A stretch of 38,499 nucleotides of DNA from a virus, in UHGV virus genome UHGV-2201310; one strand, written 5' to 3'. The notes beneath the pieces are model-generated. The model ran no database searches and was not told the origin of the DNA. It saw nothing but the letters and a program-made list of their open reading frames with translations. A program made the position numbers and the translations under genes. Positions 19,270 to 36,719 of the stretch are shown here, piece by piece. The first letter of the stretch is position 1. Each line of letters opens with the position of its first letter.

Positions 19270-19729
19270 TCAACGTAAGGCGTTCCTCGATATGCTGGCG
19301 TGGTCAGAGGGAACTGATAACGGACGACAGAAAACCAGAAATCATGGTTATGACGTCATTGTAGGTGGTGAGCTATTCACTGATTACTCCGATCACCCCC
19401 GCAAACTTGTCACGCTAAACCCCAAACTCAAATCAACAGCTGCCGGACGCTACCAGCTTCTTTCCCGTTGGTGGGATGCCTACCGTAAGCAGCTTGGCCT
19501 GAAAGACTTCTCTCCCAAAAGCCAGGACGCTGTTGCGCTGCAGCAGATTAAGGAGCGTGGCGCTTTGCCGATGATTGATCGCGGTGATATCCGTCAGGCA
19601 ATCGACCGTTGCAGCAATATCTGGGCTTCACTGCCTGGCGCTGGTTATGGTCAGTTCGAGCATAAGGCTGACAACCTGATTGCAAAATTCAAAGAAGCAG
19701 GCGGAGCGGTCAGAGAGATTGAGGTATGA
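19253..19729 (+). CDS. R: endolysin R (lytic transglycosylase)
   Basis: 158 aa, lambda R-like ([24 protein letters not shown]...). Confidence 0.9.
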
Positions 19730-20163
19730 GCAGAGTAACCGCGATTATCTCCGCTCTGGTTATCTGCATCATCGTTTGCCTGTCATGGGCTGTTAATCAT
19801 TACCGTGATAACGCCATTACCTACAAAACCCAGCGCGATAAAGCCACGTACATCATCGCTGACATGCAGAAGCGTCAACGTGATGTAGCAGAACTCGACG
19901 CCAGATACACAAAGGAGCTTGCTGATGCTAACGCGACTATCGAAAGTCTCCGTGCTGATGTTTCTGCTGGTCGTAAGCGCCTGCAAGTCGCCGCCACCTG
20001 TGCAAAGTCAACGACCGGAGCCAGCAGCATGGGCGATGGAGAAAGCCCAGGACTTACAGCAGATGCTGAACTCAATTATTACCGTCTCCGAAGTGGGATC
20101 GACAGGATAACCGCGCAGGTTAACTACCTGCAGGAGTACATCAGGACGCAATGCCTTCGATGA
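19726..20163 (+). CDS. Rz: i-spanin Rz
   Basis: 145 aa; N-terminal TM + coiled coil, lambda Rz-like N-terminus. Confidence 0.85.
19919..20110 (+). CDS. Rz1: o-spanin Rz1 (embedded lipoprotein)
   Basis: +1 frame ORF inside Rz with lipobox LVVSAC and Pro-rich mature region. Confidence 0.7.
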
Positions 20164-20338
20164 TAGCGATAATTTTACTCATCATCCTTCACATCTGGCT
20201 CTGTAGACAGGGTGGTGATCACTTCTGGAGTGAATCCAGATTAAACATCTCATTGCTGATGCTTGATATTGAGCATCTGGCGCGCAGTAAGGGGCTGCGT
20301 TGAGATAAGAGCCAGTCATCACAAACACCAGGATTTAG

Positions 20339-20361
20339 CCTCGCATTCGCGGGGTTTTTTA
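20339..20361 (+). terminator. rho-independent terminator after lysis cassette
   Basis: Hairpin CCTCGC-ATTC-GCGGGG followed by TTTTTT. Confidence 0.45.
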
Positions 20362-20384
20362 TTCCCAACTCCATAGGTAATTTT

Positions 20385-20864
20385 ATGACCCAGCATATTG
20401 GCGTAAAACTGATTAACGCCTTTCCGATGACGAGACAGGCATATAACGATTTTCGTGGCTGGCAGCTTCCTGCCGGAGAAAACGGCGAGGACGAAGGCTA
20501 TCTGGTTGAATATCTGGATGGCGGAAAACCTAACACCGATCGCTTTGATGGCTACGTTAGCTGGAGTCCAAAAGAAGTATTCGAAAAGGCTTATCGTCCG
20601 GTATCAGGACTAAGTTTCGGCCTTGCCATGGAAGCGTTAAAACAGGGCAAAAGTTTGCAGCGGGCAGGATGGAATGGGAAAGACCAGTTTGTTTATCTCG
20701 TGAAAGGGGAAAAATTAGCGTCTGCGTTGGGTTATGGCTTTGGCGAATATGTTGGCGAGCCAACTTTCAATGACACGCTTGTATTGAAAAACTCACAGAA
20801 CCGCCTTGCTACATGGGTTCCATCCATTGGCGACCTGATGGCTGAAGACTGGCAAATCATTTAA
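20385..20864 (+). CDS. hypothetical moron protein (C-terminal half possibly DUF2829-like)
   Basis: 159 aa cytoplasmic protein; C-terminal SFGLAMEALKQGKSLQRAGWNGK...W.P...DL.AEDW pattern recalls DUF2829-type small domains (unverified). Confidence 0.55.
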   Translation: MTQHIGVKLINAFPMTRQAYNDFRGWQLPAGENGEDEGYLVEYLDGGKPNTDRFDGYVSWSPKEVFEKAYRPVSGLSFGLAMEALKQGKSLQRAGWNGKDQFVYLVKGEKLASALGYGFGEYVGEPTFNDTLVLKNSQNRLATWVPSIGDLMAEDWQII

Positions 20865-21167
20865 CCATGTAGGCATTACAAAGCCTATCTACGGGTGGGC
20901 TTGATAATGAAACCGGAGTTAATTTCTGGTCACTAATTAACGGCAGTACAGCGAAACAACCCAAGCCAGTAAGTGGGGAAATAACACTGGCAGCCACTGA
21001 AAGATGAACCTCCTGCCTTATGGCAAAAAAGATTCTTTGTGGTGGCGGACTGATGGAAAGACATCGGTTATTGCAGAGACCATTCAATGAGTGGTCTCGA
21101 CAATGGCTTATACCCTACACGGGATAACTTAACTGATATCCCTTTTAACGGATAAACGGAGCCAACA

Positions 21168-21410
21168 ATGGCAGAGATTATTCCCATGACTGAAGAACAG
21201 AAATTCCAGTTAGAGATTTACAAACTGGTCATGAACCAGAACGCAGCCGCAGAAGAAGCATTTCAATTCATCGGCACTGACGAACTGAAGCTTGAGCTAT
21301 TCAAAATTCACTTCCAGTCAGGCGGCGCTAATTCAGATATCACGACCCGCACTATCGAAGCGGTGCGTAAATCGAAGGAAGCGTTAGACCTGTTCACTAC
21401 CGGAGCATAA
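21168..21410 (+). CDS. hypothetical protein upstream of terminase
   Basis: 80 aa ORF with ACGGAG RBS. Confidence 0.5.
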   Translation: MAEIIPMTEEQKFQLEIYKLVMNQNAAAEEAFQFIGTDELKLELFKIHFQSGGANSDITTRTIEAVRKSKEALDLFTTGA

Positions 21411-21412
21411 AC

Positions 21413-21850
21413 ATGGCGCGCCCAACAAAGTATCAAGAGGCGTACGCCGAACAGGCACGCAAACTGTGCTTGCTGGGCTACACCGATGCAGAGCTTGCTG
21501 ATTTCTTCGAAGTCAGTGAGTCAACTATTAACAAGTGGAAGCTTGATTATCCTGAGTTTTCGGAGTCCATAAAAAAGGGTAAGGCCGTCGCTGATGCAGA
21601 AGTTAGTGATCGTCTTTATCAACGCGCTATGGGCTTCGTGGCTCCAGACATCGATATTCGTGTTATTGAAAACAGAATTGTCGAAACTCCGCTTGAGAAG
21701 TATTACCCGCCTGATACAACCGCCGCCATCTTCTGGCTTAAGAACCGACAGAAGGATAAATGGCGCGACAAGCAAGAAGTTGAACACACCGGAGAGGTTA
21801 ACCTGATTCAGCGCATTCAGGAGGCCAGAAAACGCGCGAGAGGTGAGTAA
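21413..21850 (+). CDS. terminase small subunit
   Basis: 145 aa with N-terminal HTH-like segment, immediately upstream of and coupled to large terminase. Confidence 0.65.
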   Translation: MARPTKYQEAYAEQARKLCLLGYTDAELADFFEVSESTINKWKLDYPEFSESIKKGKAVADAEVSDRLYQRAMGFVAPDIDIRVIENRIVETPLEKYYPPDTTAAIFWLKNRQKDKWRDKQEVEHTGEVNLIQRIQEARKRARGE

Positions 21851-23310
21851 TGTCGTCAGAATTCGAGGCAATGCTTGCCGATGATATGGGGCGATTCTTT
21901 TACGATCCGCTTGGCTTCGTTATGTATGCGTTTGATTGGGGAACTGGTGAGCTTGAGGGCTTTGACGGGCCCGATGAATGGCAGAAAGAGTTTCTGACAG
22001 ATTGGGGAGACGCAATCAGGACTAATAACTTCGACGGTGTTAAACCTGTTGAAGCCTATCGTTGCGCTACCAGCTCTGGTCACGGTATCGGTAAAAGTGC
22101 TCTAACTGCCTGGGTCATTCTGTACATCCTCAGCACTCGTCCTTTCTGCAAGGGCGTCGTGACAGCCAATACCTCTGAACAGCTTCGCACCAAAACATGG
22201 GGCGAGCTGGGCAAGTGGAAGAAGCGGTGCATCACTGGTCACTGGTTTGAGTACAACAACGGCAAAGGCAACATGAACATCTACCATGTGGATCACATGG
22301 AATCATGGCGCTGTGACGGCCAGACGTGTCGGGAAGAGAACAGCGAGTCATTTGCTGGCCTGCATGCAGCTAACTCAAGCCCGTTCTACATCTTCGATGA
22401 AGCCTCAGCGGTTCCTGACAAAATTTGGGAAGTAGCAGAGGGCGGCCTTACTGACGGCGAGCCTTTCTGGTTTGCATTTGGGAACCCGACCCGTAACACC
22501 GGTCGATTCCGAGAGTGCTTCCGCAAGTTCAAACACCGATGGCGTCGACGTCAAATTGATAGCCGCCTGGCAAAGATGACCAACAAAGAGCTCATTGAAG
22601 AGTGGCGCAAGGATTACGGTGAAGACAGCGACTTCTTTAAAGTACGTGTTCGCGGTCTATTCCCATCGACATCAGAAGTCCAGTTCATACCTCAGGCATA
22701 TGTGGATGAGGCCATGTCTCGCACGCTTGAGCCCGGGTCTTACACATTCGCATCCAAAATAATCGGCGTTGACCCTGCTTACACAGGTAGTGATGAGGCA
22801 TCAATTTACCTTCGCCAGGGTCTTCATGCGCGCCTGCTTGGCACCTACCCGAAAACAGATGACGACGTTAAGTTCGCGCAAATCGTCGCAGGATTTGAGG
22901 ATGAGCATAAGGCAGATGCAGTGTTCATAGACTTCGGGTATGGCACCGGAATTCACTCAATAGGTAGGTCGTGGGGAAGGAAGTGGCAGCTGGTTAACTT
23001 TGGGGGTGAATCCAAAGACCCCGGCATGCTGAACAAGCGCGGTGAGATGTGGAACTCAATGAAGTCATGGCTCAAAGAAGGGGGAAGTATCGATGATCAG
23101 CAAACAGCTGACGAAATCGTTGCTCCTGAGTACAGGGTTAAGCTCGATGGGCGCATCGTCCTTGAGGCCAAAGAGGACATGAAGCGCCGTGGGGTTCCTT
23201 CACCAAACCGCGCTGATGCGTTAGCCCTGACGTTTGCATTCCCGGTAGTCAAAAACAAACCAACTAAGCCATTACCGGCTCCAATTCGTCCAATTTCCAG
23301 AGGTAGATAA
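21850..23310 (+). CDS. terminase large subunit
   Basis: 486 aa; Walker A-like SSGHGIGKS, nuclease-domain acidic residues; position before portal. Confidence 0.85.
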
Positions 23311-36651: not shown

Positions 36652-36719
36652 AGTTGAAGCCCCAACTGCTGTAACAGTCAGGGCTTCGGTATCAACAAAA
36701 CTTACGAGGTATTATTGAT

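Follow-up and report, generated by a model that had tools for sequence, protein, structure and literature searches.

Lambdoid phages are the textbook mosaic genomes, and what sets the positions at which extra genes enter them has long been vague. The late operon of the prophage studied here poses this question in a concrete form: what is the ORF-free stretch of 303 bp that separates an accessory gene from the last gene before the small terminase? The DNA analysed as a whole, here called the window (38.5 kb), is a P22-like prophage next to a tRNA gene. The features that frame the junction are the following.

1369-1441: tRNA gene (71.8 bits), directly beside a minus-strand ORF of 386 aa (1459-2619)
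18946 onward: holin gene, late region
19253 onward: lysozyme gene, late region
19726-20163: Rz gene, late region
20151-20303: ORF for a hydrophobic 50-aa product that overlaps the end of Rz; a strong terminator-like hairpin comes next
20337-20366, plus strand: intrinsic-terminator-like hairpin (20337-20356) with T run, 3' of the lysis genes, called by the terminator scan
20385-20864, plus strand: accessory gene for a 159-aa protein with a Tad2-like (Thoeris anti-defense 2-like) domain (Pfam PF11195, E = 6.4e-22)
20865-21167: ORF-free junction of 303 bp between the Tad2-like gene and the orf80-type gene
21168-21410, plus strand: orf80-type gene (DUF2560; Pfam PF10834, E = 1.1e-43), the last gene before the small terminase
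21413 onward: small terminase gene, late region
21850 onward: large terminase gene, late region
23310 onward: portal gene, late region

The tRNA gene and the adjacent ORF are probably the prophage attachment site and the integrase. A match to the sar antisense RNA (RF00262, 67.4 bits; 36652-36718, minus strand) indicates that an immI/ant region of the P22 type is located towards the right end of the window. Ayreon and vB_EcoP-720R6 also have the 50-aa ORF, annotated there as hypothetical, together with the terminator-like hairpin. In the accessory protein the Tad2-like domain covers residues 77-159, and residues 1-76 gave no Pfam match. The orf80-type gene has GGAG at 21158-21161 as ribosome-binding site.

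Within the late operon of this prophage, the 303 bp forms a mosaic, non-coding junction. It is built from two copies of a stem-loop family, a conserved non-coding block between them, and a conserved leader with a weaker GGGATA hairpin:

20874-20909, plus strand: hairpin A, 56 bits with the covariance model, RNA fold of -18.1 kcal/mol (z = -4.7); layout C-ATTA-CA-AAGCCTATC-(TACG)-GGTGGGCTT-GA-TAAT-G, the loop being a UACG tetraloop
20910-21068, plus strand: module B, the non-coding block between the hairpins, very conserved in its core (20953-21065)
21069-21105, plus strand: hairpin C (37 nt), 63.4 bits with the covariance model, containing the GAGACCA repeat; layout T-ATTG-CA-GAGACCATTC-(AAT)-GAGTGGTCTC-GA-CAAT-G
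21106-21160, plus strand: 3' flank of hairpin C, with a spacer, GGGATA-N10-TATCCC (21121-21142), TTTT, and then AACGGATAAA

The original prediction had described the stretch as free of credible ORFs, and this holds: only ORFs of 28, 35 and 39 aa and a minus-strand 76-aa ORF starting with TTG are present, and none is conserved. Among relatives, all short ORFs of 20865-21167 are broken by a run-length polymorphism of six or seven A, by indels and by swaps of the hairpin helix. A protein-coding gene or small ORF (28-aa, 35-aa, 9-codon or minus-strand 76-aa) was rejected because no reading frame is kept. The A run (AAAAAA, 21028-21033) has seven A in 6 of 94 distinct relatives, a length change that breaks both small ORFs. 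The two inverted repeats that had been noticed are exact as well, GAGACCA (21076-21082) and TGGTCTC (21092-21098) being separated by 9 nt, and GGGATA (21121-21126) and TATCCC (21137-21142) by 10 nt, with TTTT at 21143-21146. The first repeat (21076-21098) is real but had been drawn too small, as it is the core of the 37-nt stem-loop 21069-21105. It had also been taken as an isolated feature, whereas it belongs to one of two family copies, the other of which (20874-20909) had been overlooked.

In hairpin C, a 10-bp upper stem is separated from the lower stem by an invariant 2x2 internal loop in which CA faces GA. As RNA, the region 21064-21110 folds with -24.2 kcal/mol (z = -6.5), and none of 200 shuffled sequences was as stable; the minus-strand fold reaches -15.3 kcal/mol. 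For the whole 303 nt the value is -102 kcal/mol (z = -6.0). A covariance model made from 30 representative copies finds exactly two copies in the 38.5-kb window, the next best match scoring 14 bits. When 1.68 Mb of related loci were scanned with the outer motifs only, pairing not being required, 54 distinct sequences were obtained, 51 of which are in the family, nearly all with a helix of 9-10 bp. The family consensus is Y-AUUR-CA-(covarying stem of 9-10 bp, loop of 3-6)-GA-YAAU-G, in which R and Y covary and the Y at position -1 pairs with the G at +1. The basal sequence, i.e. the AUUR/YAAU stem and the CA/GA internal loop, is nearly invariant, and at least nine different helix sequences occur within the same ATTRCA...GAYAAT frame. 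Some of the arm variants are given below; ATTRCA and GAYAAT are constant across all of them.

Window: 5' arm GAGACCA, 3' arm TGGTCTC
P22: 5' arm GAGGCCA, 3' arm TGGCCTC
HK97: 5' arm GAGGCCA, 3' arm TGGTCTC (with a G.U pair)
Ayreon, Huey and phiKp_30: 5' arm AAAGCCA, 3' arm TGGCTTT

The stem-loop structure is maintained by compensatory changes. This became clear from two sets of sequences, 30 structure-blind representative copies and 54 distinct copies from orf80-anchored loci, the latter gathered via the downstream protein and not via the hairpin. Standard pairs fill 98.7% of the cells among the 30 representatives and 97% among the 54 orf80-anchored copies, and 9 of 15 and 8 of 15 pairs, respectively, are changed on both sides. 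Not one of 500 shuffles matched the observed pairing in either set, and slid controls pair in 33-48% (representatives) and 33-47% (orf80-anchored copies). The original prediction had named a covariance analysis across relatives as a check for both of its hairpins; the compensatory changes support the GAGACCA stem-loop, and the GGGATA hairpin shows none, i.e. no double-sided changes among relatives.

Several observations bear on the strand and the molecule that folds. Among the 54 orf80-anchored copies, 110 G.U pairs stand against 9 A.C mismatches, and one U.G wobble pair is kept in 47. The mean RNA folding energy is -20.6 kcal/mol for the plus strand and -15.4 kcal/mol for the minus strand, the plus strand being more stable in 47 of the 54. 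All 137 copies at orf80-anchored loci, from 88 oriented sources, lie on the late-gene sense (plus) strand. Among 180 distinct contexts, the hairpin is sense to the surrounding coding in 162 and opposite in two, one of them a chance hit. With DNA parameters, hairpins A and C fold with -6.3 and -8.2 kcal/mol, compared with -18.1 and -24.2 kcal/mol as RNA. The covariation, the asymmetry between G.U and A.C, and the location of all copies on the plus strand together indicate a single-strand fold on that strand, most likely an RNA in the late transcript. It is important to note that RNA is favoured rather than proven, as recombination sites made of single-stranded DNA likewise fold on one strand only and with G.T pairs.

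The position of the hairpin is as constant as its upstream neighbours are diverse. A phage carries one or two copies, and almost every copy lies in the interval from Rz to the terminase genes. The stop codons of at least 12 unrelated upstream genes precede the hairpin by no more than 10 nt (range 2-10, mostly 2-5 nt); among these genes are members of the gp49 family, the gene for Rha, one for an 85-aa protein and several unknowns. Elsewhere it is the terminator after Rz that directly abuts the hairpin (TTTTTATTGCC immediately followed by ATTACA); in Ayreon the counterpart of 20337-20366 is annotated as 'terminator', and the family hairpin lies directly 3' of it. In the window, the Tad2-like gene is inserted between the post-Rz terminator and hairpin A. 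Its stop codon precedes the ATTACA of hairpin A by 10 nt and the C of the closing pair (20874) by 9 nt; 2 nt before this ATTACA stands a relic TAG. The promoter and terminator scans predicted neither signal for the Tad2-like gene itself, which would therefore be expressed from the late transcript. Exceptions to this position are rare; one, an outlying copy (locus L107, 7860-7905), stands among putative tail genes, between a gene for a 247-aa protein and the next gene, and not at a lysis-terminase junction. From the context, we would guess that the 247-aa gene belongs to a run of putative virion structural genes.

The helix type tracks the downstream flank and not the upstream gene. Upstream, the sequences vary greatly, whereas downstream most copies continue with either GAAACCG or GGCTTATACCC. 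The copies in Enterobacter, Leclercia, Pseudocitrobacter, Buttiauxella and E. albertii have different sequences on both sides of the hairpin (the pattern used for scanning the genome collection fixed part of the stem), and thus the conserved unit is the hairpin itself. Its edges are sharp, since the sequence diverges immediately after AATG in these other genera.

Comparison of the junction among relatives reveals how cassettes are arranged around the copies. Huey and phiKp_30 have a 381-nt gene of the gp49 family inserted exactly at 21065/21067. In P22 and vB_EcoP-720R6 a rha gene replaces the left part, its stop codon being at about 20931, so that 20932-21068 corresponds to the sequence 3' of rha in those phages. 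Ayreon and mEp460 retain only 21089-21156. In P22 the minus-strand gene pid, a documented moron (PMC8835761), occupies the place directly 3' of the hairpin C block, with ORF25 on one side and orf80 on the other; the window therefore represents the 'empty' form of the pid locus. The Stx2 phage 1717 has an A-type helix joined to a C-type flank, as would be expected from recombination or deletion between two copies. The same stretch of 35-38 nt returns at both borders of unrelated genes, and that the hairpins therefore also act as joints for the gain, loss and exchange of accessory genes is partly shown. Site-specific precision at the left ends of the cassettes was considered and dropped, because the divergence points after the terminator vary by 2-6 nt, which argues against a site-specific enzyme. 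A sharply defined, strand-specific structural element marks one of the main hot spots for accessory genes, where Tad2-like, gp49-family, Rha and pid genes are found.

Two kinds of cassette known from phages invite comparison. Classical lambdoid morons, by the HK97/HK022 definition, are genes with their own promoter and terminator. Like the genes discussed here they are extra genes between conserved late genes, and P22 pid sits at the same locus. The Tad2-like gene differs in that it is bounded by the upstream terminator and the family hairpin and has no predicted signals of its own. In the PeSL (promoter-early stem-loop) cassettes of T4-type phages, the motifs flank non-essential variable genes, which are shuffled and deleted by recombination between copies (PMC2839356). 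Similarly, the family copies flank or adjoin gp49-family, Tad2-like, Rha and other genes, and the phage 1717 chimera fits the same picture. Yet a PeSL combines a strong sigma-70 promoter with an effective terminator stem-loop, whereas the family hairpin has no promoter-like site and no U tract; moreover, PeSLs belong to the early region and the family hairpin to the late operon.

Signals for transcription were also considered for the hairpins themselves. Hairpins A and C were rejected as intrinsic terminators because GAAACC and GGCUUA follow them and a U tract is missing. A promoter formed from ATTRCA and GAYAAT was rejected, as these motifs are 22-26 nt apart, a variable distance that is too far for -35 and -10 elements, and the scan called none; a promoter scan of 20000-22000 gave no promoter-like site on the plus strand. 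The suggestion in the original prediction that the region might be a partial terminator finds no support, hairpin C having no U tract and the GGGATA hairpin not being called by the terminator scan. Its broader view of a non-coding, structured and functional element is borne out by the covariation and by the roughly fourfold lower diversity described below.

As to the function, we would give an even chance to the reading that the stem-loop is an mRNA processing or stability signal and also a recombination joint. The stem-loop would act in cis in the long late mRNA as the recognition site for a structure-specific factor of the host; the carriers have hosts in common but not phage proteins. The likeliest event would be an RNase III-type cut in or near the internal loop. 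Alternatively, the hairpin could serve as a barrier to 3'-5' exonucleases. Either action would divide up the transcript and determine how stable the upstream accessory or lysis message is relative to the downstream head-gene message, and the repeated 35-38 nt might at the same time supply homology for the gain, loss and exchange of cassettes. If the processing or stability reading is right, it shows how the messages for lysis and accessory genes and for head genes are uncoupled within a single late transcript.

The geometry of the hairpin, with a 10-bp stem, an internal loop and an A+U-rich lower stem, resembles the single-cut RNase III sites of T7 and the arrangement at lambda sib. T7 R1.1-type sites have a 10-bp upper stem, then an internal loop and then a lower stem; the family hairpin shows the same order of parts, its upper stem measuring about 10 bp, and both are stem-loops located between genes in a long polycistronic phage mRNA. 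The lambda sib retroregulator is a site beside a terminator that is completed only in read-through transcripts. A sib-like trait is found here, as the hairpin often lies directly after an intrinsic terminator that would be passed only by antiterminated RNA polymerase. Compared with T7 R1.1 and sib, the family hairpin is shorter, its loop is the symmetric 2x2 type and its basal stem has a conserved sequence; it occurs in 1-2 copies per genome at one junction, and its cleavage is predicted. The 10-bp upper stem, the 2x2 loop and the lower stem of 5-7 bp are all present and conserved, giving a total of 17-19 bp-equivalents. RNase III substrates typically offer about two helical turns of double-stranded stem, and that the family hairpin falls short of this length speaks against RNase III. 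Against a plain exonuclease barrier, it can be said that the invariant basal sequence would not be needed. REP elements can stabilise upstream mRNA, and REP palindromes share with the family hairpin a size of 35-40 nt, an intergenic location after stop codons and sharp edges. They are, however, G+C-rich and dispersed in hundreds of copies, while the present element has no sequence similarity to them, is found at one phage junction and has an A+U-rich base.

Could the hairpin instead be a folded single-stranded DNA recombination site, at which a recombinase recognises ATTRCA/GAYAAT and cassettes are inserted and excised? We consider such an attC-like site unlikely, and are just as doubtful about its more specific form, in which the hairpin would be the recognition site of a dedicated lambdoid cassette-exchange system, a phage counterpart of attC that is cut and joined at its 5' edge. 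Cutting and joining there would explain that a dozen unrelated accessory and anti-defence genes end 2-5 nt before the hairpin, and indeed unrelated genes abut the same 5' edge. Like attC, the family hairpin is an imperfect inverted repeat with conserved outer sequences, a variable and covarying centre and folding of one strand; both are located after the cassette gene, and several can stand in series. Furthermore, the hairpins bracket cassettes, a chimera between copies exists, and the element is sharply delimited, with divergence right after AATG in other genera. On the other hand, the ends are unlike the attC core sites: instead of RYYYAAC / GTTRRRY plus extrahelical bases, we find ATTRCA / GAYAAT(G) with only the symmetric CA/GA internal loop and no extrahelical bases. 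Whereas attC arrays adjoin an integron integrase, the hairpins stand in ordinary lambdoid late regions with lysis, accessory and terminase genes, and no dedicated recombinase is evident. The terminator-side junctions are spread over 2-6 nt rather than fixed at one position, the DNA folding energy is weak (-6 to -8 kcal/mol), and the helix type tracks the downstream flank. Finally, the wobble pattern and the folding energies favour RNA, the conserved U.G wobble (47 of 54) being typical of RNA, and the orientation of the hairpin always follows transcription. Should the hairpin be a recombination site after all, it would provide a mechanism for the exchange of morons and the gain of accessory genes.

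The short distance between stop codons and the hairpin, 2-5 nt in many unrelated genes, would also suit translational coupling, where a ribosome that stops there melts the base of the hairpin, exposes an AUG at its 3' end (AAT plus G) and restarts. In 294 of 299 copies AAT is followed by G to give ATG, and the 9-codon ORF after hairpin C is kept in most copies. This explanation nevertheless appears improbable. After hairpin A the ORFs have anywhere between 3 and 60 codons and show no conservation, most substitutions in the 9-codon ORF alter the amino acid, and the G-rich stretch lies at least 10-11 nt from the AUG, a poor spacing for a ribosome-binding site. The G at +1 is explained by pairing with the pyrimidine at -1: the sole G-to-A change is compensated as a U-A pair (U at -1), which destroys the ATG. 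Base pairing thus explains the G better than a start codon does.

Equally improbable in our view is a processed small RNA, in which either module B (about 160 nt), freed by cleavage at the two hairpins, or the hairpin C block through UUUU (about 85 nt) would be released from the late transcript to act in trans. A precedent exists in DicF, a small RNA processed from a prophage operon. Both blocks are constrained without coding, the 303 nt folds well (z = -6.0), and the hairpin C block has a suggestive layout of 5' hairpin, single-stranded spacer, and 3' hairpin with U run. Yet the plus strand has no promoter-like site, neither module B nor the second hairpin covaries, no Rfam family is found at threshold, and the second hairpin is a weak terminator that is deleted or lacks the U run in some phages.

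Since the region is a patchwork with many breakpoints, and lambdoid phages have many near-identical segments in common, one could also regard the junction as a neutral relic, a spacer that seems conserved only through recent exchange among phages. We think this very unlikely in view of the compensatory changes across at least nine helix types, the diversity roughly fourfold under that of neighbouring third codon positions at the same loci, and the retention of the hairpin in several genera with unrelated flanks.

A packaging role, as a pac site or an additional binding site for terminase placed directly before the packaging genes, can practically be dismissed. The element is indeed always located no more than about 1 kb before the small terminase gene or cos (about 0.8-1 kb from cos in HK97 and HK022), but the sequence is 93-99% identical in cos, headful P22-like and Stx2 phages, being the same in HK97 and HK022 (cos), P22, Sf6 and HK620 (headful) and Stx2 phages (different again), whose terminases are unrelated. 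Being shared by cos phages and pac phages, the element is no packaging site; in addition, compensatory changes and G.U asymmetry fit a single-stranded fold rather than a duplex protein site, and that the pac site of P22 lies inside gene 3 also counts against this reading.

The non-coding blocks beside the hairpins are under constraint of their own. Nucleotide diversity is 0.019 in the core of module B (20953-21065) and 0.017 in the 3' flank of hairpin C (21105-21160), compared with 0.071 for orf80 and 0.077 for the small terminase gene, both taken at third codon positions in the same loci. A diversity about fourfold below that of the neighbouring third codon positions means that these non-coding blocks are constrained. 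Neither covariation nor a conserved ORF was found in module B or in the 3' flank of hairpin C among relatives. In P22-type phages, module B is what lies 3' of rha, and nothing further is claimed for it in this respect. We rejected the idea that it is a relic of the 3' end of rha located after hairpin A, because the homology with P22 rha begins only about 9 nt before the rha stop codon; the 'GAAACCGT' subtype, which continues differently, also counters such a relic.

The 3' flank of hairpin C is unchanged whichever gene comes next. It starts with a single-stranded spacer of 15 nt (21106-21120), or 16 nt when G21105, which closes hairpin C, is counted. A 9-codon mini-ORF (21103-21132) has its start in the base of hairpin C and its stop in the loop of the second hairpin. 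The latter, the GGGATA hairpin, has a 6-bp stem, a 10-nt loop that is more variable than the stem, and four U. Its fold is marginal (-9.4 kcal/mol, z = -2.05, with 7 of 200 shuffles as stable); it has no U run at locus L121 and is deleted at L012 and L163. Although conserved, this second hairpin does not qualify as a canonical terminator. The leader also contains a direct repeat, ACGGGATAAC (21119-21128) and ACGGATAAAC (21148-21157), with a distance of 29 nt. The stretch GGATAAAC resembles the 3' end of the type I-E CRISPR repeat; a CRISPR-repeat mimic was rejected, as the stretch is not conserved in flanks of the Ayreon or Stx2 type.

The 303 bp matches 207 phage records at 80-100% identity, in patches. 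The carriers include HK97, HK022, the mEp phages, HK620, Sf6, P22, Salmonella P22-like phages, Stx2 phages and one Klebsiella phage. Their head and terminase genes are unrelated, and packaging is either of the cos or of the headful type. The hairpin is also found in prophages of several enterobacterial genera, and a scan of 5,426 complete E. coli genomes gave the hairpin C block (21060-21165) in 2,560 of them, at up to five places per genome. Lambda and the K-12 prophages DLP12 and Qin have no copy, so the element is not essential for lambdoid late expression. Copies at two loci from bins assigned to Candidatus Nanosynbacter and Bacillota (L213 and L221) are typical of enterobacterial phages, with the usual flanks, and probably represent mis-binned phage DNA.

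Feature annotation at the match is absent in 26 of the 30 records listed; in the other four the match overlaps the gene for a Gp49 family protein. Rfam scans of the window and 20 loci at gathering thresholds gave nothing at the hairpins. A permissive Rfam scan of 20300-21700 returned only Proteo-phage-1 (RF03044), with 16.8 bits against a threshold of 42 (E = 4.8). This match is located in module B (20960-20995), off the hairpins. The single-stranded ends of the model fit well (16 of 18 positions at the 3' end), but neither of its hairpins is present; either module B is a collapsed relative of this motif, or chance accounts for the match. Literature searches, by subject as well as with literal sequence strings, yielded no description of the element. 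We conclude that the stem-loop family was previously undescribed, although its kind, the intercistronic stem-loops of phage operons, is known. The covariance model can serve as an annotation marker for the lysis-packaging junction.

Two neighbouring arrangements may be added. In HK97 (locus L001, 2799-2881) the conserved leader is followed by the first 82 bp of an orf80-type gene, after which the sequence diverges before gp74 (HNH); this remnant is a truncated gene relic at another mosaic joint. In a viral contig (L100, 6311-6427, minus strand), a family hairpin (53 bits) with an int-alpA RNA motif (RF02996, 50.3 bits) directly behind it stands roughly 1 kb before a small terminase gene.
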